Assembly (NCBI GenBank): GCA_903902315.1
Contig: CAIUUK010000038.1
Span: forward strand, 1 to 43,820
Length of the DNA stretch: 43,820 nucleotides
Source: an uncultured bacterium
GTDB taxonomy: Bacteria > Patescibacteriota > Minisyncoccia > Phycocordibacterales > PALSA-1337
Direction: 5' to 3'
The notes beneath the pieces were generated by a model, which searched no databases, was not told the DNA's origin, and saw only the letters and a list, made by a program, of their open reading frames with translations. A program made the position numbers and the translations under genes. Below are positions 7,625-33,883 of this stretch, piece after piece; the stretch's first letter is position 1; each line of letters opens with the position of its first letter.

Positions 7625-7643
7625 TAATCAGTAAATAGATATC

Positions 7644-7687
7644 AGTAAATAGAAAATCGCAAGATGTCTTGCGATTTTCTATTTACT
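7644..7687. terminator. Bidirectional intrinsic terminator (perfect 20-bp stem, 4-nt loop) between convergent yidC and the last gene of the T4SS-like operon
   Basis: AGTAAATAGAAAATCGCAAG (7644-7663), loop ATGT, CTTGCGATTTTCTATTTACT (7668-7687) form an exact reverse complement. A/T-rich flanks are present on both strands. The left arm is part of a 14-bp tandem duplication (7627-7640 / 7641-7654). Confidence 0.7.
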
Positions 7688-8942
7688 ATTTACCTTGTGC
7701 CGTTACTAGATCGAGTGACCAGAATGATAGGTCGTTTTTATTCATAAAGAATAGATAGTTGTCTTTGTTATCTAGACCTAGGTTGAAAGCGTCTATACTG
7801 CGCTTTGCGTCAATAAATACAGAAGATACGAGATGTACCTCACCCGTCTGTGCATTGACCTGCCAAATCTTGTCTATCGTTGATAGTGTACCCTTATACC
7901 AATCATCAGGATATGTTCCAGAAACAGGCTGGAATGGAACCGCACAGTAAACCATTTCTTTATAGAAATTACCCCAGACACATTTATCAGCGAGTGTGCG
8001 AATGATGGCATCGTTCGAAGTTGATGAGGCCACAGAATAAATGCCTGTTAATACACCATCAGCTTTATCTGAAGCTGAAACAAGAACATATTTTGCATCA
8101 TGACTTACACGAGTAGATAAACCAGCAATAGGACCAAGTACTTTCTTCCATGTACCCGTTTTTGGATTAATAAAATATAGGTAGCCACTAGCGTCTGCAG
8201 ATCCGGCTGTTGTAATGGCAATGGTATTATCCTCTGGCCACTCAACATTTACTTGAGTTACTGGAGTTGTGAAGATTTGTGTAGCAGTTCCACCACTAAA
8301 TGGAGCGGTATAACCTATACCCTGTCCGTTTTGGACTACATAGAGGAAGATCCTATCTTTTTTAGGTGATGACGCATAAGCAACGATTCCGTCTGGAAGG
8401 TTTTTACCTTGAAGATTGTATGGCGCACTCGATGAGGTTGATGTTGATTGAGCTGAAAGAGAAGCGAATAGAGTTGTCACTGTCTGATCATCATCACCAA
8501 GTATTGAACCCATGAAACTAGTCAAGTCTTTATTCCAAGTGCTTTCATAAGTGCGAGGCAAAAGTGTATTAGAAAGGGTTGTGATGTTTATAGAATCTTC
8601 TCTCGCTTCCAAGATATTTCCACGACCTCTATCGATCCATCTCACAAATGTCGTACTAGCAGTAGTTGAAGCTCCGTAGCCACCTATAGGTGTTGATGAT
8701 AGTAAGCGTAATGATGGAATAGTAACTTCGGTTGGCACGTTGTTACCAGGAGTGTTGTTTGTACTAGTTCCCTGTTGGTTAGTTCCTGTTTGTCCAAATG
8801 GATTAAATCCAGTCGAGGGATTGTTTGTTGAACTGCCATTATTTGTCGTTGAATGCATAAATAAGAACCAGAAAACAAAACCCGCAATGAGGATTATTAT
8901 GATTATGACTGCAATTATAATGTTGGATGTTTTGTGTTGCAT
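7686..8942 (-). CDS. Membrane-anchored extracytoplasmic protein, possibly beta-propeller-like; last gene of the T4SS-like operon
   Basis: 418 aa with an N-terminal TM helix (IIIAVIIIIILIAGFVFWFLF) and a T/N/S/G-rich linker. The remainder is a beta-rich domain with repeated hydrophobic-G-x patterns. No family was recognised. Confidence 0.6.
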   Translation of the reverse strand: MQHKTSNIIIAVIIIIILIAGFVFWFLFMHSTTNNGSSTNNPSTGFNPFGQTGTNQQGTSTNNTPGNNVPTEVTIPSLRLLSSTPIGGYGASTTASTTFVRWIDRGRGNILEAREDSINITTLSNTLLPRTYESTWNKDLTSFMGSILGDDDQTVTTLFASLSAQSTSTSSSAPYNLQGKNLPDGIVAYASSPKKDRIFLYVVQNGQGIGYTAPFSGGTATQIFTTPVTQVNVEWPEDNTIAITTAGSADASGYLYFINPKTGTWKKVLGPIAGLSTRVSHDAKYVLVSASDKADGVLTGIYSVASSTSNDAIIRTLADKCVWGNFYKEMVYCAVPFQPVSGTYPDDWYKGTLSTIDKIWQVNAQTGEVHLVSSVFIDAKRSIDAFNLGLDNKDNYLFFMNKNDLSFWSLDLVTAQGK

Positions 8943-8969
8943 GGGGATTTTATTGGCAGTATAAGCTAA

Positions 8970-10205
8970 TTACATCGAAATATTAAGTGAACTTATTTGA
9001 GATTTCAATGAAGTGCCATTTGAAACAAGTTGTTGGTACATGGTTTGATCAGTTACAGTTGTTTGTGCAGATTCCAAAGCCTGATCAATATTACTAAGCG
9101 ACAAAGTTTGGGCATATTGAACATCCGCTTCTCTGCTACCGAAACTTAATGGTGTGGCCAACCAAGTATTAAAGGCAGTTAAAGCACCCCAAACAAAGCT
9201 TGAACTACTAGCTCCAGGGTTATTGTAGTTAGTAACCACGGCATCGTAATAACTTAGCCAACTGTCCATGATCAAGTTTACTCTTGCTGCTTGAGCGTAA
9301 TTTTGCAGTGTAGATTGATCACCAGGGGTCAAGCCGGCAGAGTTTCGTGCGTAGTAGGAGTTTATATTTGCTAAATTTGTTGTATAACAACTTTGTGCTC
9401 CAGTACTTGCTGTTGTTCCGCAAGCCGCAACATAGCCGTCTAGTACCCCTTCTCTAGCTAAAAGAGTTGTACTACTTTGTAGGTTCGTTTGTTGGTTTTG
9501 AACATTATAATAGGAATTACAAGCATCAGTTAAAGCTGGATCTGGATCAACACCTATATCAGCCTGACTCGAACTATTATCTGCACATATAGTATCAATA
9601 CTATCAGAGTCACTTGCTCCAACTAGTTCACGAATTGTTGCTGCATTAGAGTCGGTTTGTGTTTGAAGTTGAGCGATTTGAGCATTATTAGCTGCCAAAG
9701 TATCTCTTACTGCTGATTGATCAGTATTATATGAAGTTATTTCACTTGATGCTCTTGATGCCAAATCAGCGATTTGATTTGATGCTGTCAACCCCAAAGG
9801 TGCCACTAAACTAGCTGGAATATTTACAAACCTTGGATCTATTGTTTTTAATATGAGATAGGACGAAAGAACTAAAAGTAGTCCATATATGGCATTTTGT
9901 ATTCTCTTTAAACCCTCAGTCTTGCCTTGTACTGCATCACTGGTCATATATTCAAAACCACCCCAAGTTATTTCAAAGACTGCAGCCACTGCACCAAGTG
10001 CTATGAGTAGATTGAAAATATACTGGACATAATCTTTAAAAGATACGCTTTTTGCTATAGTAAGACTCGTTCCACTGATATTTGGTAGAGGTGCAAGCGG
10101 TGTATAGTTATCTGAAATAGCTGCGTGAGCCCCAAGTATGCCACCTGAAGTAATGATAACAAAGAGTGCAACTGAGACGATTATTTTTTTATAGGATAAT
10201 TTCAT
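8970..10205 (-). CDS. VirB2/TrbC-like T4SS pilin domain fused to a ~270-aa A/S/T/Q/N-rich C-terminal extension
   Basis: A signal/TM segment is followed by a YTPLAPLP motif and two hydrophobic helices flanking FEITWGGFEYMTSDAVQGKTEGLKRIQNAIYGLLLVLSSYLILKTIDPRF. This is the pattern of the CPR/Gram-positive T4SS pilin family. Confidence 0.65.
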   Translation of the reverse strand: MKLSYKKIIVSVALFVIITSGGILGAHAAISDNYTPLAPLPNISGTSLTIAKSVSFKDYVQYIFNLLIALGAVAAVFEITWGGFEYMTSDAVQGKTEGLKRIQNAIYGLLLVLSSYLILKTIDPRFVNIPASLVAPLGLTASNQIADLASRASSEITSYNTDQSAVRDTLAANNAQIAQLQTQTDSNAATIRELVGASDSDSIDTICADNSSSQADIGVDPDPALTDACNSYYNVQNQQTNLQSSTTLLAREGVLDGYVAACGTTASTGAQSCYTTNLANINSYYARNSAGLTPGDQSTLQNYAQAARVNLIMDSWLSYYDAVVTNYNNPGASSSSFVWGALTAFNTWLATPLSFGSREADVQYAQTLSLSNIDQALESAQTTVTDQTMYQQLVSNGTSLKSQISSLNISM

Positions 10206-10208
10206 ATA

Positions 10209-11267
10209 TTATAGTGTTACTGGTGTTGAGGATGACACTGAACTGACTGCGTCAAAATTAACATTAAAACTTGCATCACCACCTTGGAGAATATTATCAA
10301 TTCCTTGGGCATTTAACTCAACATTCGCTGTTCCTGCTACCCCATCAGGTGAGCGTAGAACAATTGATGAATTATTTGCGAGTTCTGGATGAGATGAGCC
10401 ATTAATCATCCAATCTAATGTTAAAACTTTTGAAATATCATTGGAGAAATTAAAACCAAAAAGCGATGCAAATATTTTTGCTTCTTTTTGTGATCCTATA
10501 TGGAGTGTGCCAGTTGTCGCTCTGTTGAAGTATGGCCCATATAAAGGATCGTTGTTATAAAAAGTAATCGAGGGTGATGTTGGACTTACTTGTATGAGAC
10601 TTTGACCCTGAGCAGAGCCGTCACGAGTACTAGCGGTCACGATGATGTTGTATGGTCTAGGTATGATGTCCCCAGTTAATGATAAAGACTGTTTTCCGTA
10701 TCCAGATTGATCCTGAAATACAGTTCCGTCATCTTTTTTCCATTGGTATATGAGTGATGTCGGATCATATTCCTTACCAGAAGTGTTTGAAAGATGAGGA
10801 AGCGCAATAATTTTTACAGTGTTTTGAACTACGAAAGGTATTTTTCCATTGAAAAAAGGAGGAGTATAACCGTCTGTTTCAATAATTGTATCAATTGAGC
10901 CAGAACCAATAACTATTGAGCTATTGTAATGTTGTCCATTTGTGGTGATAACATTTACATCAATCGTCTTTTTTATTCCAAGTGAAGGAGCTTTTACATC
11001 TAATGTAGTTAAACCTATACCCTTTTGTACTTGGTTACCATCAAAACTCCAGATGATAGTTGCTGAATCAATGTTGAAGCTATAGCTCGCAAGCGTAATC
11101 GTAACGGTTTGGCCAGGAACTGGATTATTGGATGATGCAGAAAGTGTGAGAGCACTAGTGCCACTAGGCATGGACTGCGCATGAACAAGGTCAGAAGGAA
11201 GCAAGAAGAAAGGAGTAAGGAAAATTACAAAGGCAACACTATAAATTACAAAACCAGATAATTTCAT
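10209..11267 (-). CDS. Secreted protein with repeated beta-sandwich (Ig-like) appearance; T4SS-like operon member
   Basis: ATG at 11267 gives the signal peptide MKLSGFVIYSVAFVIFLTPFFLLPSDLVHAQS. The rest is beta-rich and S/T/N/G-rich, with no family recognised. Confidence 0.6.
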   Translation of the reverse strand: MKLSGFVIYSVAFVIFLTPFFLLPSDLVHAQSMPSGTSALTLSASSNNPVPGQTVTITLASYSFNIDSATIIWSFDGNQVQKGIGLTTLDVKAPSLGIKKTIDVNVITTNGQHYNSSIVIGSGSIDTIIETDGYTPPFFNGKIPFVVQNTVKIIALPHLSNTSGKEYDPTSLIYQWKKDDGTVFQDQSGYGKQSLSLTGDIIPRPYNIIVTASTRDGSAQGQSLIQVSPTSPSITFYNNDPLYGPYFNRATTGTLHIGSQKEAKIFASLFGFNFSNDISKVLTLDWMINGSSHPELANNSSIVLRSPDGVAGTANVELNAQGIDNILQGGDASFNVNFDAVSSVSSSTPVTL

Positions 11268-11326
11268 TACATGTATTGTATCAATATTATGCAATGTTTG
11301 CGATGTGAGTTATTCACTAAATTGGA

Positions 11327-11803
11327 TTATACAGAACTAGGTCTACGACTATTGCCAGTATTGAGAGGTGTTTCAGCAACAGTGTTCACTTTCGAGCGTT
11401 CCATTTCTGAAGCACGCCTTCCATTTTCATTGTATTGTTGTCTCATAACTGAAATTTCTTGAGCCCGTTGATTTTTTAGTTGAGCTTCCTCCATTTTTAC
11501 TGTTCTGTGAATATACCAGATATCTACTACCCAAAATGAAGCTATACCACCAGTTAATTCATCTAAACCACCAATACCAACTAGAGATAGGATTCTTTTT
11601 GGTTGATGTATCATATCTACCCCACGAAATTGAAAATAGCCACCTATTAGAGTTCCAATAACTGGATCCGCAGCAGCGCTTATTATTTCAGGTGCTGCGT
11701 AAGCTTCAGTTAATAATAAATCACCTAAAATTTGAATTAAATCAATAATTCCAGTAATAGCATAAAGTGCAACCCATTCTTTTTTACTGATTTTTGAAGC
11801 CAT
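11327..11803 (-). CDS. Small membrane protein with basic/coiled C-terminal tail; T4SS-like operon member
   Basis: ATG at 11803 lies 4 nt after the VirB4 stop and gives MASKISKKEWVALYAITGIIDLIQILG.... It has 2-3 hydrophobic segments. The longer 11923 start overlaps virB4 and is unlikely. Confidence 0.55.
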   Translation of the reverse strand: MASKISKKEWVALYAITGIIDLIQILGDLLLTEAYAAPEIISAAADPVIGTLIGGYFQFRGVDMIHQPKRILSLVGIGGLDELTGGIASFWVVDIWYIHRTVKMEEAQLKNQRAQEISVMRQQYNENGRRASEMERSKVNTVAETPLNTGNSRRPSSV

Positions 11804-11807
11804 AATT

Positions 11808-13622
11808 TTAATTACCAGCTTGCTCCAACTGCCTCTTTGCGTCTTTGATATTGAGAACCTGTTGGGGATTGGTTGTGATGATTTGATCTTCTGTGTATGA
11901 ACCAATGACTTTGATGGCCACATGTTTCAAACCGACAAAGAATATTCCCTCTCCAACATCTGATTCAAGCAAAAGGTATTTTTCTTCATCTGTTAGGTTA
12001 AAGACTTTCTGAATATGGTCAATAACGGTTGGTGATTGTTTCAAAAGAATCTGAATAGATGAGTTTGTCACAATTGGCATACCATAAGGTGAGTTCAAGA
12101 AATCATCCACATCCTGAGTAATCGTTGAAAGACCAAGGAAATACTTGCGTCCTCTTTTTGCCAAACCAAATAGAAATGAAGCCGTATCTTCTGATTTCAT
12201 CATCCACCATGCTTCATCGATGACGAGGAGACGCTTCTTTAAATCTTTTCTGATGGAGTTCCAGATATAGTGTGTTACAAGATACATGGCAACTGGTTTG
12301 AGTTCATCCTCCATGTCGCGAAGTGAAAAGACAATGAATTTATTGTTGATATCAACATTTGAAGGCTTGTTGATAAATCCCGACCATGTTCCTTTGGTGT
12401 ATTTGCTGAGGCGTTGTACGAGACTATCCGCACCTTCCATACCCGCCAGAACAAGCTCAAAGTCAGACAAAAGAGGAGCGTCAACATTTCTAAAATCAGA
12501 GTCAGCCGTAATATCTTTTAAAGCGTAGGTTTCAGTAATAGCACGATCGATGATAGCGTCTTCTTCTTGTGATAAACCACCAAGCATAATACGGAAAAGT
12601 CCGACTAGGTTGATGATGTTTGATCGTAGAACATCAGCACTAGACTCATCTTCTCGAGCAATAGGTAAATCAAAAGGGTTGATATGGTGTTCAGAGTTGA
12701 GTGAAATGTTGAAATACTTACCACCCGTTGTTTCGGACATGTATTCGTATTCTTTTTCAGGGTCGATAACGATAACATCCACATCGAACATCAGTGTTCG
12801 AAGTATCTCTAGTTTGGTACAGTATGATTTTCCGGCACCAGCTGTAGCGAATGTGACAGAGTTATAGTTTGAAAGTGAAAAACGATCAAATAGAACAAGT
12901 GAAGAGTTATGGCGATTTATACCATAAAGAATACCTTTGTCTGAGGTTAGATCGAATGAAACAAATGGAAAAAGGCTTGAAAGTGGTGAAGAATTTAGCT
13001 TCGAATGGACTCCTAACTGGTCATCTGCTATTGGAATGACACTTTTGAAACCTTGTTCCTGTTGGAATAAAGCCGGCTTTAGGTATATAAGCTTTGCCTC
13101 TAGAATAGAACGGATTTCTGATTCAAGCTTATCAAGCTCATTCTCAGAATCGCCAAAGATAGTGATATAAACACCAACATCGAAAAGGTGCTCCTGAGCC
13201 TGCATGAGTTGGTCACGGAGCTGTTCGAGGTCTTGGTAGGCTGTATCTAGAGCTGGATCACGAACTAGGCCTTTATCTTCCCTGCGTGAAATCTGACTCT
13301 GGATTTCGGCTACTTTTTTTTGGAAATGGCGTAGAATTTTGGCTGTATCAACAGGATGAATAAATATAGAAATATCAAAAACTTTATCAAGGTTAATGAT
13401 CGGTGCAAACCAACTTTCATCTAAGAAGCGAGGATATGATATGACAAAAAGAGTTCGTCCAACCTTTTCACCCAAGTTTAATTCCTTTGGACTGACTTTG
13501 AGAGCTGAAGGAGCTATAACATCTTTGAGTTCAAGTACGCCAGCCTGATATATCTCTTCTGGAAGGATAGAGATAATTGGTGACTCATTTTTCTTTTTAA
13601 ATGGATTGCTGAAAATACTCAT
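11808..13622 (-). CDS. virB4: VirB4/TrbE/ConE-family T4SS ATPase (ATPase-containing part)
   Basis: 604 aa with Walker A FATAGAGKSY and Walker B RLLVIDEAWWMM. The N-terminal YPRFLDESWFAPIINLD segment is typical of VirB4 proteins. Confidence 0.85.
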   Translation of the reverse strand: MSIFSNPFKKKNESPIISILPEEIYQAGVLELKDVIAPSALKVSPKELNLGEKVGRTLFVISYPRFLDESWFAPIINLDKVFDISIFIHPVDTAKILRHFQKKVAEIQSQISRREDKGLVRDPALDTAYQDLEQLRDQLMQAQEHLFDVGVYITIFGDSENELDKLESEIRSILEAKLIYLKPALFQQEQGFKSVIPIADDQLGVHSKLNSSPLSSLFPFVSFDLTSDKGILYGINRHNSSLVLFDRFSLSNYNSVTFATAGAGKSYCTKLEILRTLMFDVDVIVIDPEKEYEYMSETTGGKYFNISLNSEHHINPFDLPIAREDESSADVLRSNIINLVGLFRIMLGGLSQEEDAIIDRAITETYALKDITADSDFRNVDAPLLSDFELVLAGMEGADSLVQRLSKYTKGTWSGFINKPSNVDINNKFIVFSLRDMEDELKPVAMYLVTHYIWNSIRKDLKKRLLVIDEAWWMMKSEDTASFLFGLAKRGRKYFLGLSTITQDVDDFLNSPYGMPIVTNSSIQILLKQSPTVIDHIQKVFNLTDEEKYLLLESDVGEGIFFVGLKHVAIKVIGSYTEDQIITTNPQQVLNIKDAKRQLEQAGN

Positions 13623-13625
13623 ATA

Positions 13626-14267
13626 TTATATTTGGATTGGTTTTTCTGTATCTCCGGGGTTAAAGATCTTGTAGAACAATTCTACCACTTCTTCGGTCCC
13701 AAGTTCAGCTGCTCTGATACCACAGCGCACTAATCCTTGTTCTACAACTGCCACTCTTTGCTCAATCTGACTACGATATTCTGCAAAACTTGAATCAGCT
13801 GATGCAGTCTTTCCTGCTTTTGATTTATCTCGTCCTGGCATCATGTTGGCGAGAGGGTTTTTACTACTACCTATGATTGGTGGATCATACGGTACAACTA
13901 CAAAGAAACTTTTTGACATAATGTTGGTGCTTTCCACAAATGACCTAACGAATTCAACATATTCCCTCACCTGTATCTTCATGAGGTCTGTCGTTTGTTC
14001 TTTGTAACGATTTTCCAAGAGAGCAAGATACGGTCTAATGTCGAGTTTTTTTGATTGAGCAAAGATTTGGATTGAGAAATCAAGAGAGTTTAGGAAGTTT
14101 TGGAATTCACTCAGAATAGCATTTTGTTCATCACCAGATTTTAGGGCAAAGTTGAGAGATGTGGCCAAAACAATAGAACGCATCGCTCCACTTTTTAGGA
14201 TGATGATACCATCACGAATTTCCTGTATTGGTATGAAGTCTTGAGTTGTTTGTTGTTTTTGAGCCAT
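13626..14267 (-). CDS. Protein resembling the N-terminal domain of Gram-positive VirB4 (ConE/Orf16-type); separated from virB4 by one in-frame TAA
   Basis: 213 aa. FIPIQEIRDGIIILKSGAMRSIVLATSLNFALKSGDEQNAILSEFQNFLNSLDFSIQIF matches my recollection of the N-terminal region of long VirB4 homologues. 213+604 aa equals a typical full-length VirB4. Confidence 0.4.
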   Translation of the reverse strand: MAQKQQTTQDFIPIQEIRDGIIILKSGAMRSIVLATSLNFALKSGDEQNAILSEFQNFLNSLDFSIQIFAQSKKLDIRPYLALLENRYKEQTTDLMKIQVREYVEFVRSFVESTNIMSKSFFVVVPYDPPIIGSSKNPLANMMPGRDKSKAGKTASADSSFAEYRSQIEQRVAVVEQGLVRCGIRAAELGTEEVVELFYKIFNPGDTEKPIQI

Positions 14268-14288
14268 TTTTTAATTTCTGTTTACGGG

Positions 14289-14723
14289 TTATTTTTGTTT
14301 CTTGCTTGAATATATACTCTCTTTTATGTCCAAACTCCATGCCAAGTCTTTGAGTTTACTGTCTGCTATCTTTGGTACTCCTAGAGAAGTATAGTTTTTT
14401 GCATCTTTTACAGCGGAACTCGTATCAACAGGTCTTGGTTTGTCAACTTTTTTCCAAATGTATAGTTTATTACCAAAATAATATTTGAATGCCGCTTCAA
14501 CCGCGTTAATTAGGGGTCTGTTATTGATTCTATAGAATGCTAGGGCTGATGATGCACTCATTATGACGATAATAGGTATAGCTGAAATCAATAAATTATT
14601 GAAGAAGGCATAGACAACAAAGGAAAGACCTGCTCCACCGGCAATAAAAATGAATTGCTTCAGAGTGAGTGGTCCGAAGATTTTGTCCTCAACTTCGATA
14701 AATTGCGGAACTTGAAAGCGCAT
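14289..14723 (-). CDS. PrgI-family (VirB3-like) T4SS membrane protein
   Basis: MRFQVPQFIEVEDKIFGPLTLKQFIFIAGGAGLSFVVYAFF followed by a second TM helix is the characteristic PrgI-family N-terminus. It sits directly upstream of virB4, as VirB3 analogues do. Confidence 0.7.
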   Translation of the reverse strand: MRFQVPQFIEVEDKIFGPLTLKQFIFIAGGAGLSFVVYAFFNNLLISAIPIIVIMSASSALAFYRINNRPLINAVEAAFKYYFGNKLYIWKKVDKPRPVDTSSAVKDAKNYTSLGVPKIADSKLKDLAWSLDIKESIYSSKKQK

Positions 14724-14742
14724 CGGTATTATTATACATCAC

Positions 14743-15321
14743 TTACTCAATTGGTTCACGGTACAAGTCTGAGGTCCTCGTTTTCTTTTCTACTGTAATT
14801 ACTGGACCAGACAGAAGGCGGTCAACCAAAGGTTCTGTGTTATTTGTCGCTTTAGCTGGTACAGGGTTTTCTATGTTCGATATTATGTCTTTTTTACTTT
14901 CAAGTCTGGAATTTGATCCATTGTTATCAACGTTTTCTTCTGATTCAACAGTGAAGTTCCCTGCTTGTTCCAATGATGATATAGCCTCATCTGTACGGTC
15001 TTTCTCCTCGAGTTGTCTCATCGAGGTGCGGATTTTTCCAAACACCTCTTTGTTCACATCTTCAGCGATAAGTTTTGCATTCGCCGCATCTATGCCGGTT
15101 TCACTTGAGAAATTCCTTACAAAATCTTTCGAAGGAGAAAGCCCAAGCATCACCTGTCCAACCAGATCAACCAATATGCCCTCTTGATCAACATGCAAAC
15201 CCCTATTATTTGCAATAGTGATGATACTATCGTGAATTTCTGCAGAAGTTACAGCATCTTTTACCTCTTGTGGAAGTTTTTCAAATTGAGCTTGTATTTG
15301 TTCAGCAGTAAATTTAAGCAT
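14743..15321 (-). CDS. Acidic cytoplasmic hypothetical protein; T4SS-like operon member
   Basis: 192 aa with no TM segment, helical N-terminal half and acidic tail. No family was recognised. Confidence 0.55.
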   Translation of the reverse strand: MLKFTAEQIQAQFEKLPQEVKDAVTSAEIHDSIITIANNRGLHVDQEGILVDLVGQVMLGLSPSKDFVRNFSSETGIDAANAKLIAEDVNKEVFGKIRTSMRQLEEKDRTDEAISSLEQAGNFTVESEENVDNNGSNSRLESKKDIISNIENPVPAKATNNTEPLVDRLLSGPVITVEKKTRTSDLYREPIE

Positions 15322-15337
15322 GTTAATGTTTGTTTAA

Positions 15338-17626
15338 TTAATGAGCATCTGGTGCTGGTTTAGGAGCACCTCCACCTCCGCTATTTCCAGCACCTTTGTC
15401 AAAATCAGCTTTAAACTTCTTGACCTCGTCGATGACTGCATTTTGTGCTCGAGCATCTTTTATTGCTTTGCCTGGAGATATTTGCTGTTGTAATTTCATT
15501 GATTTTTCCGCAAATTGTCTTTTTTGTTCAGCTAGCATTTCATTTTGATCATGTTTATCCTCTTCGAGTTTAACTTTATCAGCCTTCATCTTTTCAAGTT
15601 GAGTATTAAGAGTCTTTAATGTTGCTTCTTTTGTGGCGGTACTTGCACCATTCATTGCACCACCAGCTGTCTTTATTTCCTCAGAAACTTTAGCAATTTC
15701 TTTTTCATGGTTATTCATTGCACTAGCCAATGTATCGATTGAAGTGTTTAACCCACTTAGAGTCCTTTCAATATCATTTTTAATATTCAAGTTATTCAAA
15801 TTTTCTTTGTTAAGTTCAGTCGTTGCATCTTCCGAAGTCTTTATTGCCTTATCATCTTTTTTTTGCTTCGCTATAATTTCTGCTGCCTTACGGCCACCAA
15901 GATTCATTCCAAGTGTTCCTGGAGCAGATGCAACATTTCCTGCTGTAACACCTGCAAAGTTACCTATCACCGAATCCTTACCCATTTTCTTTTGAACAAT
16001 TTCAAGCGGTTTTGCTGCCAACTTCGAGGCCCCACTCATCATCTTACTCATAATTGTATCAGTTGTATTTGCGTGATATTTTTCAGCCTCAATTTTTGCC
16101 GCCGCCATTGCTCGATCAAGTGCAGTATTGCCATCCTTATCTTTTATCGTATTGTCATAACGAGTCTTATCAACATTTGAAATTCTCTTATATCCCTCTT
16201 CGTACTGTTTCTGACTAGCTGCTGCAACATCAGTAAATCCGCCTTTCTTTACTCCAAAGCCAAAGTTCGCGGCTTTACCAAGTTGTTTATCCAAAGCGTT
16301 TCCAATCGAAGGAGACCAAGCTGTAATCTTATTCATTACAGCACTGTTTTTGGCAATATGTGCCAATCTTCCTCCGGTATTTCTTCCGGCATAGCTACCG
16401 ACATTTTTCCAGATTCCATGGGCACCGTATTTCTTTGTATCAATCCACTCTGAAGCTAAGCCACCCATACTCATTGCAACTACTAATGGTACATTGAGCA
16501 AGAAAATGATAAAGAAATCATTTATAGCGAGAATAATGTAATTTTTTAGAAAATTTGGTGACAGTGCACCACTTGCTCCTGCTGTTGATAAACTTGTTCC
16601 AGCATTTGTAAAAACTGTACTTGATGAGAGAATTTCCAACGCCGCATATAAAAGCAAGAGATAAACAGGCATGAATATCAGCTGAGCCTTTAGTTGTTTG
16701 GTGAATTCCTTTGCTTTGTCATCAAGACCTGGCACAACCCACGAAGCAAACCATATTGGCGAAAACGCAAGTAGCAAGATCAAGATAATTAATCTCGCCA
16801 TAAATGCTAAAGATGCAAGCAGGAATGAGAGACCAATAACGAACATGATAATACATCCAACTAATCCTTGAACGATTATTTCCAATGGCTTTGAGGATGG
16901 TGTTGATGGAGATGCTGCTGTTGCTGGATTGTAAATTGCTTGGGGCTTTAATAATGTAAGAAATATGTCTGACATACCACCTTGTTTACCATCAAGCATT
17001 TGATTTGTTATGACACAACTGTTTACACTACCAGGCGCCTTACCATTCTGGCTGCAGTCTGTTTGGTATTGATTGGTTGACGATTTTGTTGGTTGAGAAG
17101 TATCAACAATACCGTGATATAGAGCAAGTGAGACCACATTTGAAGCATCTATGAGCATGCTCGTTATAAAGAAACTAAAATTAATCAGCACACCCGCTAT
17201 CACAATATTTTTTATGAGCGTCCCGGCTCCTCCAACAGTGTCAAAACCTAGGATGATTTTAAATGAAGCGTAGAGCAACATGAATATGATAAATATTCCT
17301 GAAATATCACGAATAGTTTGCCAGACTAAGTAAACTCCAGATGTACTGTCCACGAAATTTTTTATCTCAAGCGTCATCGTTATGGATACATTCAATAGGG
17401 CGCCAGTTAAAGTTACCCAGAGAGAGGTTATCGATAACGCCATGTTAGCTACCCAAGCTGCAACCAGAGCGAGAAAATCATTCATAGATTTTCCAAAAAT
17501 TGTATCAATCGCAGTACTCATAATACTACCGAAAATACTCGCATGTGCAAAATGCGCAGTCATGATCCACCCTACAATCGAGAGTGACGAGAGTTTTATG
17601 AAATTTGGTAAATATCTTTTAAACAT
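15338..17626 (-). CDS. VirB6/TrbL-like polytopic membrane protein with ~350-aa charged coiled-coil C-terminal tail
   Basis: 762 aa. The first ~400 aa contain at least 6 hydrophobic helices in a TrbL/VirB6-like arrangement. The C-terminal half is K/E/A-rich, coiled-coil-like, and ends GAGNSGGGGAPKPAPDAH. Confidence 0.6.
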   Translation of the reverse strand: MFKRYLPNFIKLSSLSIVGWIMTAHFAHASIFGSIMSTAIDTIFGKSMNDFLALVAAWVANMALSITSLWVTLTGALLNVSITMTLEIKNFVDSTSGVYLVWQTIRDISGIFIIFMLLYASFKIILGFDTVGGAGTLIKNIVIAGVLINFSFFITSMLIDASNVVSLALYHGIVDTSQPTKSSTNQYQTDCSQNGKAPGSVNSCVITNQMLDGKQGGMSDIFLTLLKPQAIYNPATAASPSTPSSKPLEIIVQGLVGCIIMFVIGLSFLLASLAFMARLIILILLLAFSPIWFASWVVPGLDDKAKEFTKQLKAQLIFMPVYLLLLYAALEILSSSTVFTNAGTSLSTAGASGALSPNFLKNYIILAINDFFIIFLLNVPLVVAMSMGGLASEWIDTKKYGAHGIWKNVGSYAGRNTGGRLAHIAKNSAVMNKITAWSPSIGNALDKQLGKAANFGFGVKKGGFTDVAAASQKQYEEGYKRISNVDKTRYDNTIKDKDGNTALDRAMAAAKIEAEKYHANTTDTIMSKMMSGASKLAAKPLEIVQKKMGKDSVIGNFAGVTAGNVASAPGTLGMNLGGRKAAEIIAKQKKDDKAIKTSEDATTELNKENLNNLNIKNDIERTLSGLNTSIDTLASAMNNHEKEIAKVSEEIKTAGGAMNGASTATKEATLKTLNTQLEKMKADKVKLEEDKHDQNEMLAEQKRQFAEKSMKLQQQISPGKAIKDARAQNAVIDEVKKFKADFDKGAGNSGGGGAPKPAPDAH

Positions 17627-17641
17627 CTGTATAATTATAAC

Positions 17642-19147
17642 CTAGTTTGTTGTAGTTTTTCCGCACATGCTTGCTGATTGATATGGTATAGCCTGATTCT
17701 GTATGCCTAACAAAGTTTTATCAACTGACGCTACATCGCTTTTTGCATTCTGAACATCTACAGCTGTTGGAACTGAATTGCTACTGAGCAGGTCTGTATA
17801 CTGTTGAGTCGCAGCATTGACTGCATCTGTACTCGTGGCAGCATTTGTTGTTGCTTGAATTTGAGTAAGAGTGTTAAGAGTAGATGAAGCAGTGGCGTCT
17901 TTGTATTGATATGTTGAAAGTAGAGGGGTGATTTGAGTATCTATGATTGACTGAACACCTGTAATAGCGGCAGGATCATTGGTTTGGCATTGAGCCAATA
18001 AGGTTTGGTATGTAGAGCTAGCGTTTTCTATATCAGCAACAGCCTTATCGTATTGTGCTTTGATCTGTGTTGCACTACCAATATATTTACCAGCATCTGC
18101 TGTGGCATGTGAAGCGGCTTTTTGTGAGGTATTTGCACTTTGGTCAGCAGCCATTCTAGCAATGAAAGATTGTTCACCATTTGCGCCAGGTTGAGTTGAT
18201 GAATATAGTCCACCAGACAAAACTTGTTGCATTGTCTGTGCTACGAGTGCACCGATAACCTCATCTATCATACTTGCTTGCACTAGAGTATCAGTCGGAT
18301 TGCCAAGCTCTTTGTTTAATGAGGCTGAAATAACTGATCCAGGAGTTTCATTCTGACATACATGTGTAACTGTTTCATTAAAATTTTCATCTACAGATGG
18401 TATATCGTCGCACTTTTGGAATGTTAAGAAACCATTTCCCTGCGCAAGCTGTTGCTGGTATTCACCTTGTTTATTGGCAATACTTAAAGAAAGATCACTC
18501 TGTGCTTGGAGATAAGCCCCACTCTCATTGTTTTGTGGCTGACTGATGGCGATAAATGCCGGCCATCCTCCTTGAGAGAAATCACCTTTTGTAAATCCAT
18601 CTATTGTTGCAACCTTTTTTCCATTAACAGAAACACTGGAATTTTTTACATTGTTTATAACTGAGCTCAGGGTACATGAGTATTTGTTATTTGCACCAGC
18701 GCCATTTCCAGCCTGTTGATATGCTAACTGTAAACGCAAATTAACACTGAAAGGTGAACATAGATTAGACAGAGGACCTGTAGTACTTGAAAGAAATTGA
18801 CCAGTGAGTTGATCTGCGGCATTTGTAAAGAAAGCTGTGGGGTTAGTTAGAAAAGCTGGGCTTCCTTTGAATCCAGAGTTAATCCACTTAACAGTATCCG
18901 ATGTCATCGTTTGTAAAAGGGATTTCGCCATTGACCATGCAAGTGGATCCAGAACCTCTTCTTTGATCTTTTGCCAATCAAATAGCGTACTTGTTAAGCT
19001 TGTAACCGTTGCCGTCAAACCGGTTTCAATTTCTGTTGCTATATCTGTTGTTATTTGAGCATGAGCTTGAGGTGGAGTTACAGTCTCAAATACAAATAGA
19101 GCGGTAGAAAGGAGAAGAAGACCTTTGATTGTTTTTGTAATTTTCAT
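17642..19147 (-). CDS. Secreted T/A/Q/S-rich protein; T4SS-like operon member
   Basis: 501 aa with signal peptide MKITKTIKGLLLLSTALFVFETVTPPQAHAQ. A conserved-looking N-terminal block reads LDPLAWSMAKSLLQTMTSDTVKWINSGFKGSPAF. No family was recognised. Confidence 0.6.
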   Translation of the reverse strand: MKITKTIKGLLLLSTALFVFETVTPPQAHAQITTDIATEIETGLTATVTSLTSTLFDWQKIKEEVLDPLAWSMAKSLLQTMTSDTVKWINSGFKGSPAFLTNPTAFFTNAADQLTGQFLSSTTGPLSNLCSPFSVNLRLQLAYQQAGNGAGANNKYSCTLSSVINNVKNSSVSVNGKKVATIDGFTKGDFSQGGWPAFIAISQPQNNESGAYLQAQSDLSLSIANKQGEYQQQLAQGNGFLTFQKCDDIPSVDENFNETVTHVCQNETPGSVISASLNKELGNPTDTLVQASMIDEVIGALVAQTMQQVLSGGLYSSTQPGANGEQSFIARMAADQSANTSQKAASHATADAGKYIGSATQIKAQYDKAVADIENASSTYQTLLAQCQTNDPAAITGVQSIIDTQITPLLSTYQYKDATASSTLNTLTQIQATTNAATSTDAVNAATQQYTDLLSSNSVPTAVDVQNAKSDVASVDKTLLGIQNQAIPYQSASMCGKTTTN

Positions 19148-19152
19148 AATAT

Positions 19153-20022
19153 TTAAATATTAAGGTATGAACCACTTTCAGTTGGTGCATATTTTATACC
19201 AGCATCGGTTAAAGCCTTTCTTATACCAATTAATCCGCCAAGTATTTCTGTATACGAATTCTGATACATCTGTAAACTATTCATTGAGAGTAGAGGATCT
19301 GTTTGAACTAAACCTAGAGAGGTTGAGATGAATTGCATATTGCTTATACCGTTTATTAAACTAACATGGCTACTAGATATTGCAGGTGGAACCGGGGTTT
19401 TTAAGAGATTTTTCAAAATTTTCTGATAATTTTTTGCATTCGCGTTTAATTCATCTATATACGAAGTGTCTTTTCCTTGTATCCCAGCAAAAGCTATTGA
19501 GGCGCTACTTTTTTGAGGAGAGTATGTTTCCAAAATTTGGCCTAGAGTATTGCCGTAAGATTTTAATGATGCGGTATCGTTAGTTAAAGAAAATGTAACA
19601 TCATCTGTGCTGTATTCGCGAGGCGCATTAAAAGAAGAGCTTTCTTTAGAAAGAATCGTTGCTACTGTACTACTAACAACAGCAGTGTTTCCTGTTAGAC
19701 CTGCTTGATTTAAAAGTGCGAATTCAGCAAATGTGTCTCGACTGAATTGATCAGTAAGTGTCAGTGGTCCTTCATCAGCAGAATCGTTCGAGTTGCCTGA
19801 TTTCAAATTAATTGCTGTTGAACTACTATTCAAAAAAAGTTTTTTCCAATCAGCATTATCAGCGATAATAGTGTTTGTGCTAGTTGTAGCGTCGTCTACA
19901 GCAATGTTCTGTGGTTCTATGGGCGCAGGTTGCCAATAGGTATAGCCAGCTGTTGCACCTACAGCCAAGAAACAGACGATAGCAATAACAAATGTTTGTT
20001 TGTGTAGGTAGAATTTGGCCAT
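19153..20022 (-). CDS. Membrane-anchored extracytoplasmic protein; first gene of the T4SS-like operon
   Basis: ATG at 20022 gives MAKFYLHKQTFVIAIVCFLAVGATAGY (a TM anchor). The GTG start at 20073 would add 17 aa. No family was recognised. Confidence 0.55.
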   Translation of the reverse strand: MAKFYLHKQTFVIAIVCFLAVGATAGYTYWQPAPIEPQNIAVDDATTSTNTIIADNADWKKLFLNSSSTAINLKSGNSNDSADEGPLTLTDQFSRDTFAEFALLNQAGLTGNTAVVSSTVATILSKESSSFNAPREYSTDDVTFSLTNDTASLKSYGNTLGQILETYSPQKSSASIAFAGIQGKDTSYIDELNANAKNYQKILKNLLKTPVPPAISSSHVSLINGISNMQFISTSLGLVQTDPLLSMNSLQMYQNSYTEILGGLIGIRKALTDAGIKYAPTESGSYLNI

Positions 20023-20087
20023 GCTAGGCTCAATTATAGCAGAGAAACTGTGATTATTCTGTGGATAAACCACTTAAATTAAGCGTT

Positions 20088-20924
20088 TTACAACAATTGA
20101 GCTTGAATCGCCACCCACTCATCTGGAGATAGATCTTCTGCACGGACTTTTTCATTCAGATTTAAATTTTTCCAAACAAGATCAGTTTTTTCTTTAGGTA
20201 GAATTTCCTCCAAATTTCTTTTCAAAAATTTTCGTTTATGTGCAAAACCAGTTTTTACTATTTTGAAAAATAATGATATGGCATCAGGGTTTTTCGGTAA
20301 TATTTGATTGAAATTATCTGCAGAAATATTGTTTATGGCTAAAATAGCCGAATCAACTGTTGGTGGTGGAGTAAAAGCCCCTGGTGGAACTTTGGCTATC
20401 ACTTTTGGTTTCCCAAAGACTTTTACTGAAATTGAAAGTACGCTTTCTTTACTCTTCCCTGTTGATTGTTCTGGTCTAGCAACAATTCGGTCCGCCACTT
20501 CTTTTTGGACAAGGAGAACCATTCTATTTGGTCTAGGTTCATGCTCTAGGAATTTTTCTAGGATTGCACCAGTGATGTAATAAGGAATATTGGCAATTAA
20601 TGCATAGGAAGAAGGAATGAAGGAATTTGGAGCAGAAAGTTTTTCGTCTAAAATGTCGCCCTGAATCAATTTTAATTGACTGGAGTTTATCTCATTTGCA
20701 AATTTTTCGTTCAAAAGTGCAAATGCACGAGCATCTTTTTCAACCGCTGTGACAATTGCGCCGGTTTTTAGTAAGCTTTCTGTCAAAATTCCTGTACCAG
20801 GACCAATTTCCAGTATATTTTCACCAGATTTTAAATTTCCTGCAGTTATGATCTGCTCCAAAACATGTTTTGAATTTAGAAAATGTTGCCCAAGTGATTT
20901 TTTTGCAAATAGTTTCATGTTCAC
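20088..20924 (-). CDS. rsmA: 16S rRNA (adenine1518/1519-N6)-dimethyltransferase
   Basis: KKSLGQHFLNSKHVLEQII and the SAM motif ILEIGPGTGILTESLL. The 278-aa length is typical of KsgA/RsmA. Confidence 0.9.
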   Translation of the reverse strand: MNMKLFAKKSLGQHFLNSKHVLEQIITAGNLKSGENILEIGPGTGILTESLLKTGAIVTAVEKDARAFALLNEKFANEINSSQLKLIQGDILDEKLSAPNSFIPSSYALIANIPYYITGAILEKFLEHEPRPNRMVLLVQKEVADRIVARPEQSTGKSKESVLSISVKVFGKPKVIAKVPPGAFTPPPTVDSAILAINNISADNFNQILPKNPDAISLFFKIVKTGFAHKRKFLKRNLEEILPKEKTDLVWKNLNLNEKVRAEDLSPDEWVAIQAQLL

Positions 20925-22915: not shown

Positions 22916-23053
22916 GGCGGTTATCTTAACACAAGATTGCACTGTGCATATCATTGTTGACTTTGTGGCCATGCCTGCTACTCTGAATAGGTATTCAAGA
23001 GGATACATAGAAAACTCTGGCTCTGTTGAGCCATTTGTCATCTTATTCTGTAA

Positions 23054-29628: not shown

Positions 29629-30126
29629 ATGACCACCCCCAAAGTCCTCGGCGTCGACATCGGCAACGTGATTATCAACAATCGTTTGAACGACCCTGAA
29701 GTTGTGAAGGTTGATGAAGCAGTGTACGCATCATTCCCTCCTTCGGAAGGTGTATTTGAGTCACTGAAGACATTAAACGATTATTTTGACGGTGAGGTCT
29801 ATTTGATTTCAAAATGCACAGAGTGGGCACAAATACAGATATTGGCATGGCTCAAAGCACATGATTTTTATACAAAAACAGGTATCAAGCCAGAACACGT
29901 GAATTTTGTGAGACAGCGCAATGAAAAAGACGCAGTTTGTATAAAATTAGGAGTCACACACTTCGTCGATGACCGCTTGGAAGTTCTAGGTTATATGGTT
30001 GAATCAACATCGAATCTCATCTTGTTCCAGCCAGATCAAGAAGAAGTGAAAGAATTCAAGCAATTTCTACCGAAAGTCACGGTGGCTAATGATTGGAATG
30101 AGGTGGTGAAACAAATAGTGCGATAA
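29629..30126 (+). CDS. HAD-fold-like small protein with degenerate motif I
   Basis: 165 aa. LGVDIGNVII occupies the place of the HAD DxDxT/V motif (second Asp replaced by Gly). Later ISK, NEK and FVDDR segments fit HAD motifs II-IV. Assignment is tentative. Confidence 0.35.
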   Translation: MTTPKVLGVDIGNVIINNRLNDPEVVKVDEAVYASFPPSEGVFESLKTLNDYFDGEVYLISKCTEWAQIQILAWLKAHDFYTKTGIKPEHVNFVRQRNEKDAVCIKLGVTHFVDDRLEVLGYMVESTSNLILFQPDQEEVKEFKQFLPKVTVANDWNEVVKQIVR

Positions 30127-31831: not shown

Positions 31832-32101
31832 AGCTATAACCCTAGCAAATTCACTACATTTTGTCAACTTATCGTCAACAGAATATTACGGCTAACTATA
31901 GCCAAATTACAACATATTTATCTCACTTTGTTTGACCAAGTATCAAAATAATGATACACTTATACCAGATAGTCAAGATAAAGAACATTGGCGGATTCAA
32001 GCTTCTAATGCAACACTGTCTCGGAATGTGTTATTCCGACTGATGAGTCTGAAAAGACGAAACAGAAACATTAACGTAAGTAGTTCTTTACAACAAAATA
32101 T

Positions 32102-32863: not shown

Positions 32864-32882
32864 GTTGCTTTCATATATTTAA

Positions 32883-32907
32883 TCGAGGATGCTCAACACA
32901 TCCTCGA
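32883..32907 (+). terminator. Hairpin after the methyltransferase gene
   Basis: TCGAGGATG, loop CTCAACA, CATCCTCGA form a perfect 9-bp stem. The downstream T tract (CTTTA) is weak. Confidence 0.4.
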
Positions 32908-33877: not shown

Positions 33878-33883
33878 AATTCC

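Follow-up and report, generated by a model that had tools for sequence, protein, structure and literature searches.

The window, meaning the whole 43.8-kb stretch of DNA analysed, carries eleven minus-strand ORFs between positions 7686 and 20073, at the coordinates given in a preliminary description and separated in its ORF listing by gaps of 3-32 nt; they are numbered here g1 to g11 by coordinate, g11 being the first gene of the cluster and g1 the last. The cluster is flanked by rpmH-rnpA-yidC/dnaA-dnaN on one side and ksgA-pcrA on the other, and its base composition equals that of the flanks, without a compositional break. Of the neighbours named earlier, dnaA/dnaN, comM, pcrA and a LysM-M23 gene were all confirmed, while the proposed ruvC (29629-30126) has no Pfam match. 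A tyrosine recombinase is encoded at 35434-36372, 15 kb from the cluster and behind housekeeping genes. A candidate extended -10 element, TGCTATAAT (20033-20041, minus strand), precedes the g11 ATG by 10 nt and may act as a promoter; of 48 relatives, 16 have the pattern TGnTAnAAT close behind ksgA, among them 9 of the 14 in which g11 comes directly next. A perfect 20-bp hairpin (7643-7688) between the convergent yidC and g1 is likely a bidirectional terminator ending the cluster, inside which a terminator scan found weak terminator-like sites only (5-12 bp stems).

The motor of the system is g5 (11808-13622), a VirB4 ATPase of the MPF_FATA/CD1110 type without the N-terminal domain. Its score against NCBIfam NF045971 ('VirB4-like conjugal transfer ATPase, CD1110 family') is 366.6 bits, where the cut-off is 325 (E 2.6e-109; profile positions 180-732 of 752); it also matches Pfam P-loop_TraG and aligns by BLASTP with residues 225-772 of pCF10 PrgJ (24% identity, E 1e-42), and both Walker motifs, A (GAGKS) and B (LLVIDEAW), are intact, which bears out the original VirB4 assignment. 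A weak match to CedB (2.4e-9) falls far below cut-off. The VirB4 N-terminal domain is encoded by a gene of its own, the TrsD-like g6 (13626-14267), found as an independent ORF in 79 of 80 loci: it matches NF045975 (positions 99-233, 3.6e-11) and NF041427 TrsD (2.4e-8), both below curated cut-offs, and also aligns to NF045971 positions 1-115, in line with its earlier reading as a VirB4-N-terminal-like protein. The small protein g7 (14289-14723), with two predicted transmembrane helices, matches PrgI (PF12666, 42.8 bits, cut-off 27, E 7.9e-11) as had been proposed and is the predicted membrane anchor for VirB4; its median identity is 56% (79 loci).

The sole pilin-like ORF in the window is g2 (8970-10205), a VirB2/TrbC-type pilin in which a signal peptide and a two-helix hairpin (aa 61-125) are followed by a C-terminal extension of 290 aa rich in Ser, Ala, Thr, Asn and Gln; its match to Pfam T4SS_pilin (PF18895) reaches 32.3 bits against a cut-off of 26.6 (E 1.1e-7), substantiating the proposed identity. 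The hairpin is 51% identical to that of orthologues and the hypervariable extension only 7-13%, with lengths of 281-628 aa in all 50 of 50 orthologues. [quoted passage not shown]

In the 762-aa polytopic membrane protein g9 (15338-17626), residues 1-390 hold approximately 6-7 transmembrane helices, with a variable loop at 176-245, and the C-terminus forms a long hydrophilic tail of poor conservation. Neither Pfam nor NCBIfam matches g9 directly, but Pfam TrbL (PF04610) is reached sub-threshold by 7 of 41 orthologues (best 6e-5), covering profile positions 4-212 of 215 in two relatives, and hhalign against PrgH, TrbL and VirB6 selects the same stretch, aa 255-330 (E 0.029, 0.13 and 0.017). In Foldseek searches with the AF2 model (pLDDT 76.8), TrwI/VirB6 chains fit best, without significance (E>=0.7, TMt 0.37-0.42). 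Thus, of the four T4SS hallmarks initially claimed, VirB2, VirB3 and VirB4 exceed curated profile cut-offs, whereas for VirB6/TrbL the polytopic topology and sub-threshold similarities stand and a direct profile match and structural significance do not; g9 is probably an extended VirB6/TrbL-like translocon subunit, weakly supported by evidence that is sub-threshold throughout.

Directly upstream of g9 lies g10 (17642-19147), encoding a secreted 501-aa protein in which a Cys-containing conserved core (aa 66-320) is followed by a helical C-terminal part of variable sequence. Its mature N-terminus, QITTDIATEIETGL, resembles that of Agrobacterium tumefaciens VirB5, QFVVSDPATEAETL, and hhalign against VirB5 chooses exactly this stretch (E 0.046). 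TrbJ NF010448 is matched by 4 of 81 family members (best 1.5e-6), others match Pfam DUF4141 (two above cut-off), and some relatives carry Ig-like or Fib_succ_major C-terminal modules; the AF2 model (pLDDT 69) consists mostly of long helices and gave no PDB match in Foldseek. g10 is therefore a candidate VirB5/TrbJ-like minor pilin or tip protein by a weak, sub-threshold match, which renders doubtful the earlier statement that none of the seven unassigned proteins resembles VirB5. Comparison of these proteins with pCF10, Tn916 and Ti components gave no matches.

The remaining members are mostly extracytoplasmic. The first gene, g11 (19153-20022), encodes 289 aa counted from M18, a residue invariant in the orthologue alignment that makes the ATG at 20022 the most likely start; one predicted N-terminal transmembrane helix is followed by an extracytoplasmic domain of roughly 250 residues. 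Sequence searches of Pfam, NCBIfam and PDB gave no match, and hhalign against PrgL and PrgD was negative. Position and topology make g11 a candidate for the missing VirB8-like part; the position is conserved, with divergent homologues filling the slot where tblastn had missed it. g3 (10209-11294), found in 75 of 80 loci and probably starting at M10 (11267), is anchored by a predicted N-terminal transmembrane helix and carries putative Ig-like beta-sandwich domains, its orthologues giving sub-threshold matches to BiPBP_C (10 of 44), Ig_3 (6), MG4, PKD, TIG and Big_2. The last gene product, g1 (7686-8942), is likewise N-terminally anchored and combines a low-complexity linker with a TolB-like beta-propeller: when 43 orthologues were searched as a profile, TolB made up 12 of 13 PDB matches (best E 0.0047), DPPIV_N is sub-threshold in three members, and median identity is 33% (56 loci). 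The fast-evolving membrane protein g4, listed as a 198-aa ORF (11327-11923) overlapping virB4, probably begins with the ATG at 11806, a single nucleotide past the virB4 stop codon, giving about 159 aa (11327-11806); a hydrophobic ORF of 110-190 aa occupies this place between virB4 and g3 in most loci, and g4 is not pilin-like by HMM and has no family match. g8 (14743-15321), detected in 44 of 80 loci, is an acidic cytoplasmic protein of 192 aa whose C-terminus carries a conserved DPYREPI motif; it has no predicted transmembrane helix and no significant Pfam or NCBIfam match.

Within the cluster, neither a VirB8-like nor a VirB1-like protein was recognised. Some 3 kb upstream on the plus strand (23054-24247), a peptidoglycan hydrolase with Peptidase_M23 and two LysM domains, located in the same place in all nine relatives whose flank extends far enough, may supply a VirB1-like wall-opening function. 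PMC12102498 reports VirB1 homologues bearing M23/LysM and names Paceibacteria as the class with VirB1 homologues associated with virB4.

Pfam scans of the 43.8-kb window, including 31 further ORFs, and Pfam and NCBIfam searches of the cluster ORFs found no relaxase, VirD4/TcpA or VirB11, in agreement with the preliminary description. Close VirB4 relatives occur in more than 591 species genomes, and nearly all of 80 related Paceibacteria loci share, colinearly, the order dnaN-dnaA-rnpA-yidC-[g1..g11]-ksgA-pcrA. VirB4 is 76-95% identical across these 80 species, with a median of 80% versus 59% for DnaA, and is the more conserved of the two in 44 of 44 loci compared. This shared order and the conservation of VirB4 beyond that of DnaA identify the cluster as a vertically inherited core apparatus beside dnaA in a monoderm ultra-small bacterium rather than a mobile element, as had been suggested in place of a conventional conjugation module.

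Among known systems, the closest is the Patescibacteria-clade T4SS, which according to PMC12102498 comprises VirB4 with adjacent TrsD, PrgI/VirB3, a VirB6-like protein and a VirB2-like pilin, is chromosomal and origin-proximal, and lacks a nearby relaxase or T4CP; on that account there is no essential difference, and the window cluster is a member with the Paceibacteria arrangement. The Southlakia epibionticum T4SS (SEML1_0006-0019, PMC10633639), the only relative tested by experiment, likewise lies beside dnaA/dnaN, shows the order VirB4 - TrsD-like - PrgI - X - ... - VirB6-like, has PF18895 pilins and contains no relaxase or T4CP within the cluster. It differs in its array of six short pilins in place of one extended pilin, its PrgK-like lysozyme and peptidase adjoining virB4 (no hydrolase lies inside the window cluster), its NTF2-like (VirB8-like) protein, unmatched by any recognised counterpart here, and its accessory ectodomain proteins. 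Monoderm MPF_FATA systems (pCF10 prg/pcf; pGO1/pSK41 trs) share a CD1110-family VirB4, PrgI, a polytopic PrgH/VirB6-like gene upstream of PrgI-VirB4 and a TrsC-TrsD-TrsE-like order of VirB3 followed by split VirB4; in contrast, they are plasmid- or ICE-borne, lack VirB2 pilins and possess a T4CP (PcfC), a relaxase (PcfG), the PrgK hydrolase, VirB8-like PrgL/PrgD and surface adhesins.

Taken together, the cluster is very probably the Paceibacteria version of the Patescibacteria-clade T4SS, descended from monoderm (MPF_FATA) conjugation machinery, deprived of relaxase and coupling protein and inherited vertically beside dnaA; it would serve as a conduit for host contact, whether for import or export. 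In the proposed mechanism, a VirB4/TrsD hexamer would dock on PrgI and the extended VirB6-like g9 at the cytoplasmic membrane and pull pilin from the membrane to polymerise into a pilus or tube, with the hypervariable pilin extension facing outward. Secreted g10 would be placed, through its VirB5/TrbJ-like N-terminus, on VirB6 and at the pilus tip, and the anchored propeller protein g1, Ig-like g3, g11 and g4 could form or stabilise the wall-spanning part. Such a machine would conduct macromolecules in host-cell contact rather than perform plasmid conjugation, and bringing in nucleic acid or other material from the host appears about as likely as effector export. The uses suggested initially (attachment, effector delivery, DNA uptake) coincide with those proposed in the literature.

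More specific readings fare less well. Export of effector proteins or toxins to the surface or interior of the host cell, by a T4CP-less translocator like Bordetella Ptl or Brucella VirB, is possible though somewhat doubtful: T4CP-less effector systems are known (PMC12857230, PMC12102498), Wang 2023 (PMC10633639) took the absence of relaxase and T4CP to suggest protein export, and g8, with its conserved C-terminal motif, might act as substrate or adaptor, but the window yielded no candidate for an effector, a chaperone or a secretion signal, and the sequence does not tell export from import. A dedicated competence machine resembling Helicobacter pylori ComB or archaeal Ced, possibly feeding ComM and nearby-encoded recombination proteins, seems unlikely. 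Both are VirB4-centred, lack relaxase and T4CP and move nucleic acid inward; ComB keeps VirB2/3/4/6 analogues and is resembled by the set here, which lacks T4CP, VirB11 and relaxase, there is a weak CedB match, comM and pcrA lie nearby, and a phylum auxotrophic for nucleotides (PMC12102498) would profit from importing nucleic acid. However, the comM/pcrA neighbourhood is origin-proximal housekeeping synteny, ComB works with ComEC and with VirB7-10 for the outer membrane, ComB7-10 analogues being absent here, and Ced has CedA/A1/A2 and resembles the cluster at the VirB4 ATPase level only, through the weak CedB match. Moreover, S. epibionticum competence relies on type IV pili together with comEC, a gene dispensable for epibiotic growth, for which the T4SS cluster and its pilins are essential (Wang 2023, PMC10633639; PMC12857230). 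Less likely still is an adhesive pilus for host attachment that transports nothing: the variable pilin surface, the adhesin-type modules on g10 relatives and the Ig-like and propeller ectodomains would suit it, but adhesion in cultured Patescibacteria already comes from type IV pili (PMC10633639, PMC12857230), and the extreme conservation of VirB4, TrsD and PrgI with a retained VirB6-like translocon suggests something beyond a fibre. An ordinary integrated conjugative element or its remnant, passing DNA to recipients via a relaxase and coupling protein encoded elsewhere, is highly improbable and already largely refuted: the membership of its VirB4 in the conjugative CD1110/MPF_FATA family, the tyrosine recombinase and the VirD4 homologues reported far from virB4 in many Patescibacteria (PMC12102498), by which a T4CP could sit outside the window, are outweighed by 43.8 kb without relaxase, T4CP or oriT-type genes, colinearity between rnpA-yidC and ksgA-pcrA, unbroken composition, the distance of the recombinase and the occurrence of relaxases in only 103 of 3035 genomes (same paper).

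The Paceibacteria T4SS described here is not "essentially uncharacterised", as first stated: composition, phylum-wide distribution, origin-proximal position and essentiality have all been published (PMC10633639, PMC12102498, PMC12857230). Quinonero-Coronel 2025 (PMC12102498) places it phylum-wide next to dnaA, dnaN, rnpA, ksgA and rpmH, the Saccharibacteria cluster beside dnaA has the same VirB4-TrsD-PrgI-...-VirB6 order (PMC10633639), and a 2026 preprint (10.64898/2026.06.21.733656) reports host-RNA uptake in a cultured Minisyncoccota/Patescibacteriota representative and tentatively interprets tubular structures as T4SS pili. The window adds a new member of a published system, the novelty claimed earlier being overstated, and a few details that are new relative to the available text of PMC12102498: a single pilin always bearing a hypervariable C-terminal extension of 150-500 aa, the weakly matching TrbJ/VirB5-like N-terminus of g10, and the TolB-like propeller of g1 and Ig-like g3 as fixed members of the cluster. 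The system itself, described in 2023-2025 and carried by most ultra-small Patescibacteria beside the replication origin, is biologically important.

The eleven closely packed minus-strand ORFs at 7686-20073, of which g11 is the first (5') and g1 the last, are present in the ORF listing of the window as the preliminary description had reported, and they constitute a confirmed, well-delimited member of a type IV secretion system (T4SS) already described in Patescibacteria. The identity of the motor, of the motor's anchor and of the pilin is established. The claimed VirB4 ATPase, g5, passes the curated threshold of NCBIfam NF045971, "VirB4-like conjugal transfer ATPase, CD1110 family" (366.6 bits against a cut-off of 325, E 2.6e-109), aligns with residues 225-772 of pCF10 PrgJ (E 1e-42) and has both Walker A and Walker B intact. 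VirB4 is split, since g5 lacks the VirB4 N-terminal domain and the TrsD-like g6 supplies it; the trsD-trsE arrangement of pGO1 likewise splits VirB4. Against VirB4 models g6 covers the first ~115-230 positions, its values for NF045975 (3.6e-11) and for the TrsD family NF041427 (2.4e-8) both lie below the curated cut-offs, and it adjoins virB4 as a separate gene in 79 of 80 relatives' loci. By coordinates, the g6 stop and the g5 start share one frame with a single codon between them (13620-13628); programmed stop-codon read-through fusing g6 to g5 is unlikely, given that L001, the closest relative, has a different spacing and that the two genes are split universally. The PrgI/VirB3-like protein g7 and the VirB2/TrbC-type pilin g2 are upheld by Pfam PrgI PF12666 (42.8 bits, cut-off 27) and T4SS_pilin PF18895 (32.3 bits, cut-off 26.6). 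Three of the four T4SS hallmarks originally proposed thus pass curated thresholds, while for the fourth, the VirB6-like g9, the matches come from orthologues and profile comparisons and stay below threshold.

The pilin combines a two-helix hairpin (aa 61-125) that is 51% identical to orthologues with a C-terminal extension of 290 aa, rich in Ser, Ala, Thr, Asn and Gln, that is only 7-13% identical to them; the orthologues are 281-628 aa long (50/50). An HMM scan of the ORFs finds one pilin gene in the window and rules out the small g4 product as a second pilin, so that the single extended pilin here differs from the arrays of short pilins carried by Saccharimonadia. In F/VirB2 pili the termini point outward and, by analogy, the g2 extension would sit on the pilus surface and decorate it.

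About 6-7 TM helices within aa 1-390 precede a long hydrophilic tail in the polytopic g9 protein, which has no direct Pfam or NCBIfam match. TrbL is matched below threshold by 7 of 41 orthologues (best 6e-5), two further relatives span TrbL profile positions 4-212 of 215, and hhalign aligns the same stretch of g9 each time with PrgH, Ti TrbL and Ti VirB6 (E 0.029, 0.13 and 0.017, respectively). PF19590, a precomputed label on some g9 homologues, was not reproduced in the Pfam scan, and the g9 profile retrieved from the PDB coiled-coil proteins only, via the C-terminal tail. With the membrane part modelled by AF2 (pLDDT 76.8, pTM 0.69), Foldseek gave no significant match in the PDB (all E at least 0.29): the best-fitting chains are those of R388 TrwI/VirB6 (probability 0.6-0.72, TMt 0.37-0.42, rmsd 10-12 A, E at least 0.7, non-significant), and the remaining top matches are mostly GPCR and transporter chains at rmsd 23-68 A. 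Topology and gene position agree with a VirB6/TrbL role, and g9 is probably an "extended VirB6".

Immediately upstream of g9, as virB5 precedes virB6, lies the gene for g10, a secreted protein of 501 aa whose homologues are all annotated "hypothetical". Its Cys-containing core (aa 66-320) is 47% identical among homologues and its C-terminus is variable. The window protein has no TrbJ/VirB5 family match of its own; within its family, NCBIfam TrbJ is matched by 4-5 of 81 members (best 1.5e-6) and Pfam DUF4141, which we take to be the CTnDOT TraI family, by four, two of them above the cut-off, the TrbJ/VirB5-like stretch directly following the signal peptide. CTnDOT TraI is homologous to VirB5 (Guglielmini 2014, PMC4027160). 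Read directly, the g10 motif QITTDIATEIETGL resembles QFVVSDPATEAETL of A. tumefaciens VirB5, and hhalign of g10 against VirB5 selects exactly the QITTDIATEIETGL stretch (E 0.046, a short alignment of 20 columns). Comparison with Ti TrbJ by hhalign was negative, as were searches of g10 profiles, including an N-terminal one, against PDB sequences; the AF2 model (pLDDT 69) consists of helices, its C-terminal bundle confident but its conserved core at only pLDDT 55-65, and Foldseek against the PDB returned coiled-coil and axoneme noise and no VirB5. A VirB5-like nature of g10 is possible, though somewhat less likely than not. The C-terminal third of the family is modular, two surface Ig-like domains (PF16403) or a Fibrobacter Fib_succ_major domain replacing, in different lineages (homologues P0069, P0083 and P0096), the helical bundle of the window protein. 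The pairing of conserved membrane cores with hypervariable outward parts in g2, g9 and g10 fits host-facing surfaces.

For the remaining proteins without an assigned family, remote similarity suggests folds for two. The profile of g1 against the PDB returned TolB in 12 of 13 matches (best E 0.0047) and DPPIV_N occurs below threshold in three family members, which points to an anchored TolB-like beta-propeller; orthologues of g3 match BiPBP_C (10/44) as well as Ig_3, MG4, PKD and TIG, all below threshold, which points to an anchored Ig-like beta-sandwich protein. The g4 slot holds a small hydrophobic ORF in most loci, its sequence rarely alignable. At least two unalignable sequence types occupy this slot (e.g., "...ADLLSLIPFVGD..." versus "...IDLIQI...TGGIAPFW..."), both often ending in a Gly-Val-Arg-x-Pro motif. 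For g11, a word-indexed search found seven homologues, and the PDB gave no match. Sought as VirB8-like (NTF2-fold) or VirB1-like hydrolase subunits of the cluster, none of the orphans matched PrgL, PrgD, PrgK or Tn916 Orf13/14 by hhalign or PDB profiles, and the best of 168 local hhalign comparisons of g1, g3, g4, g8, g11 and the pilin with 28 pCF10, Tn916 and Ti VirB/Trb proteins (E 0.006) is not significant after multiple testing.

Both ends of the cluster can be defined. Between g1 and the convergent yidC lies a perfect 20-bp inverted repeat with a 4-6-nt loop (7643-7688), the strongest hairpin of the 17.6 kb scanned and likely a bidirectional terminator closing the cluster; the same scan found only weak terminator-like sites, with stems of 5-12 bp, inside it. 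At the other end, the likeliest g11 start is the minus-strand ATG at 20022, corresponding to M18, invariant among 39 orthologues. The ksgA-g11 spacer (within 20020-20090) contains an extended -10 element, TGCTATAAT (20041-20033, minus strand), also present behind ksgA in 16 of 48 relatives; 20033-20041 is a candidate promoter of the cluster, and its position only 10 nt 5' of the g11 ATG implies a near-leaderless transcript. A perfect DnaA box in the same spacer, TTATCCACA (20060-20068), was rejected as a regulatory site and is probably a chance occurrence, because it is kept in 0 of 48 relatives. In 34 relatives, 0.7-2.8 kb separates ksgA from the nearest cluster gene detected. Where g11 is detected, the gap is filled by unrelated genes on either strand, such as, in L001, one encoding a polytopic membrane protein of 539 aa, and in nine loci without a tblastn match to g11 a divergent g11 homologue occupies the slot; the cluster boundary is therefore g11. 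Within the cluster, the 198-aa ORF call for g4 runs 116 nt into virB4, and its likeliest start is at 11806 on the minus strand, 1 nt past the virB4 stop. The window thus provides a complete, clean eleven-gene Paceibacteria example with both boundaries defined.

Housekeeping genes directly flank the cluster on both sides: PBP1, dnaN and dnaA, then rpmH, rnpA and yidC on one, and ksgA, pcrA, a divergent LysM-M23 hydrolase, comM, a DksA-like protein, PNPase and S15 on the other, with a Xer-like recombinase 15 kb away, a CCA enzyme and four tRNAs further out. The proposed position beside the replication origin holds insofar as dnaA and dnaN, with rnpA, rpmH and ksgA, adjoin the cluster; the location of oriC itself is deduced from dnaA/dnaN, because DnaA boxes show no enrichment. 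Pfam recovers comM and pcrA as neighbours, as well as the LysM-M23 wall hydrolase at 23054-24247, 3 kb outside the cluster, all three named in the preliminary description, but the "ruvC" named with them (29629-30126) yields no match in Pfam at E<=0.01, and neither do the adjoining 307-aa and 310-aa ORFs. Read from its TTG start, the longest pcrA ORF (20960-23083) runs 30 nt into the divergent LysM-M23 gene; since the helicase domain begins at residue 60, the true start is probably an ATG near residue 56, and the two genes would then have a divergent promoter region in common. Farther along, GC reaches 0.44-0.47 at 32000-35000, against about 0.38 elsewhere, over genes for a Gcw_chp-family protein (33038-33787) and an NYN-domain protein (33884-34420), and this stretch may have been acquired horizontally. 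At 39000-43800 the GC skew is strongly positive (0.17-0.24), and tRNAs Arg-TCG, Gly-GCC, Pro-TGG and Gly-TCC are interleaved with small plus-strand ORFs.

Comparison with relatives bears on whether the cluster is a resident or a mobile element. A close VirB4 occurs in at least 591 genomes, searched with one genome per GTDB species, and the best 80 of these loci, at 76-95% VirB4 identity, were analysed; those with informative labels belong to Paceibacteria (Taylorbacteria, Zambryskibacteria, Campbellbacteria, "Paceibacterota"). By tblastn with all window proteins, the order dnaN-dnaA-rnpA-yidC-[g1...g11]-ksgA-pcrA is colinear in nearly all of the best 80 loci that are long enough, and synteny is thus conserved across this set. 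Across the best 80 of at least 591 loci, median identity is highest for VirB4 (80%), followed by TrsD (62%), PcrA (61%), DnaA (59%), PrgI (56%), DnaN and KsgA (50% each), YidC (42%), g10 (34%), g1 (33%), g3 (32%), g9 (31%), g8 (30%) and g11 (27%), and VirB4 identity exceeds that of DnaA in 44 of 44 loci compared. It is unusual for a secretion ATPase to surpass DnaA, DnaN, PcrA, KsgA and YidC in conservation. Pfam scans of 41 window ORFs, 31 of them beyond the cluster, detected no relaxase, VirD4/TcpA or VirB11 in the 43.8 kb, in agreement with the absences first noted from the sequence. An integrative conjugative element (ICE) or other conjugation module is rejected on this absence of relaxase and coupling protein (T4CP) from the window, the conserved core synteny, the lack of a compositional break (GC uniform at 0.37-0.40 over cluster and flanks) and the distance of the nearest recombinase. 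The cluster is a chromosomal core-genome apparatus, vertically inherited and strongly constrained, as had been proposed. By proxy of NF045971 and the identities, its VirB4 would group with Patescibacteria VirB4s of MPF_FATA ancestry.

The description of such a machine as essentially uncharacterised does not hold, the system having been published already. In a Saccharibacterium, Tn-seq showed an "apparent T4SS" (SEML1_0006-0019) and a pilin array to be essential for epibiotic growth, and relaxase and T4CP were noted as missing (Wang et al. 2023, PMC10633639); Table S2 of that work lists VirB4 - TrsD-like - PrgI - X - NTF2-like - VirB6-like - pilins directly adjoining dnaA/dnaN, the order from VirB4 through TrsD-like, PrgI and X to VirB6-like being the same as here. 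According to Quinonero-Coronel et al. 2025 (PMC12102498), VirB4 is present in 2417 of 3035 Patescibacteria genomes, where it makes up a single monophyletic clade within MPF_FATA. TrsD, PrgI/VirB3, VirB6 and VirB2-like pilins are encoded close to it, relaxases hardly ever, and in Paceibacteria it adjoins dnaA, dnaN, rnpA, ksgA and rpmH. The system was thus correctly recognised and its novelty overstated, because it had been described. What is new here is suggestive and not demonstrated: the hypervariable extension of the pilin, the possible resemblance of g10 to VirB5, the fixed propeller and Ig-like partners and the conservation of VirB4 above DnaA.

A working scheme can be proposed in which VirB4/TrsD, seated on PrgI and g9, would pull out and polymerise the pilin, g10 would seed or cap the pilus, g1, g3, g4 and g11 would form a scaffold spanning the wall, possibly opened by the nearby M23-LysM hydrolase, and the resulting structure would mediate macromolecule exchange with the host. 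As to direction, uptake of host material and export of effectors carry roughly equal weight, as sequence cannot separate import from export. A 2025 review (PMC12857230) considers the system as a route by which material might be taken up from the host. In a 2026 preprint (10.64898/2026.06.21.733656), host RNA is reported to enter a cultured member of the phylum (Minisyncoccota/Patescibacteriota), and the tubular structures described there are suggested to be T4SS pili. An adhesion-only role deserves little weight, and so does conjugation, the parts specific to which have been lost from the neighbourhood of a core-genome locus. Within the exchange scheme, it is tempting to speculate, as a rather unlikely possibility, that the pilus is unlike characterised T4SS pili: a monoderm machine polymerising a VirB2 pilin with a 150-500-aa hypervariable outer domain, bearing a VirB5-like cap with swappable adhesin modules and a propeller/Ig-like wall scaffold, and acting "in reverse", a feeding tube through which the epibiont would draw in RNA, DNA or cytoplasm of the host. 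If true, this would account for VirB4 being more conserved than DnaA.

The system is of a kind now much discussed and its biology is important and unsolved, but the finding in its original form had been published before. Patescibacteria, which account for a large part of bacterial diversity, live on other microbes, and the T4SS is one of only a handful of machines with demonstrated essentiality for this epibiotic lifestyle. To this the window adds a list of lineage-fixed accessory proteins and several testable features, namely the pilin with its hypervariable extension, a tip protein that may be VirB5-like although the machine is monoderm, and VirB4 conservation exceeding that of DnaA, details that could steer structural work and genetics in newly cultured relatives.
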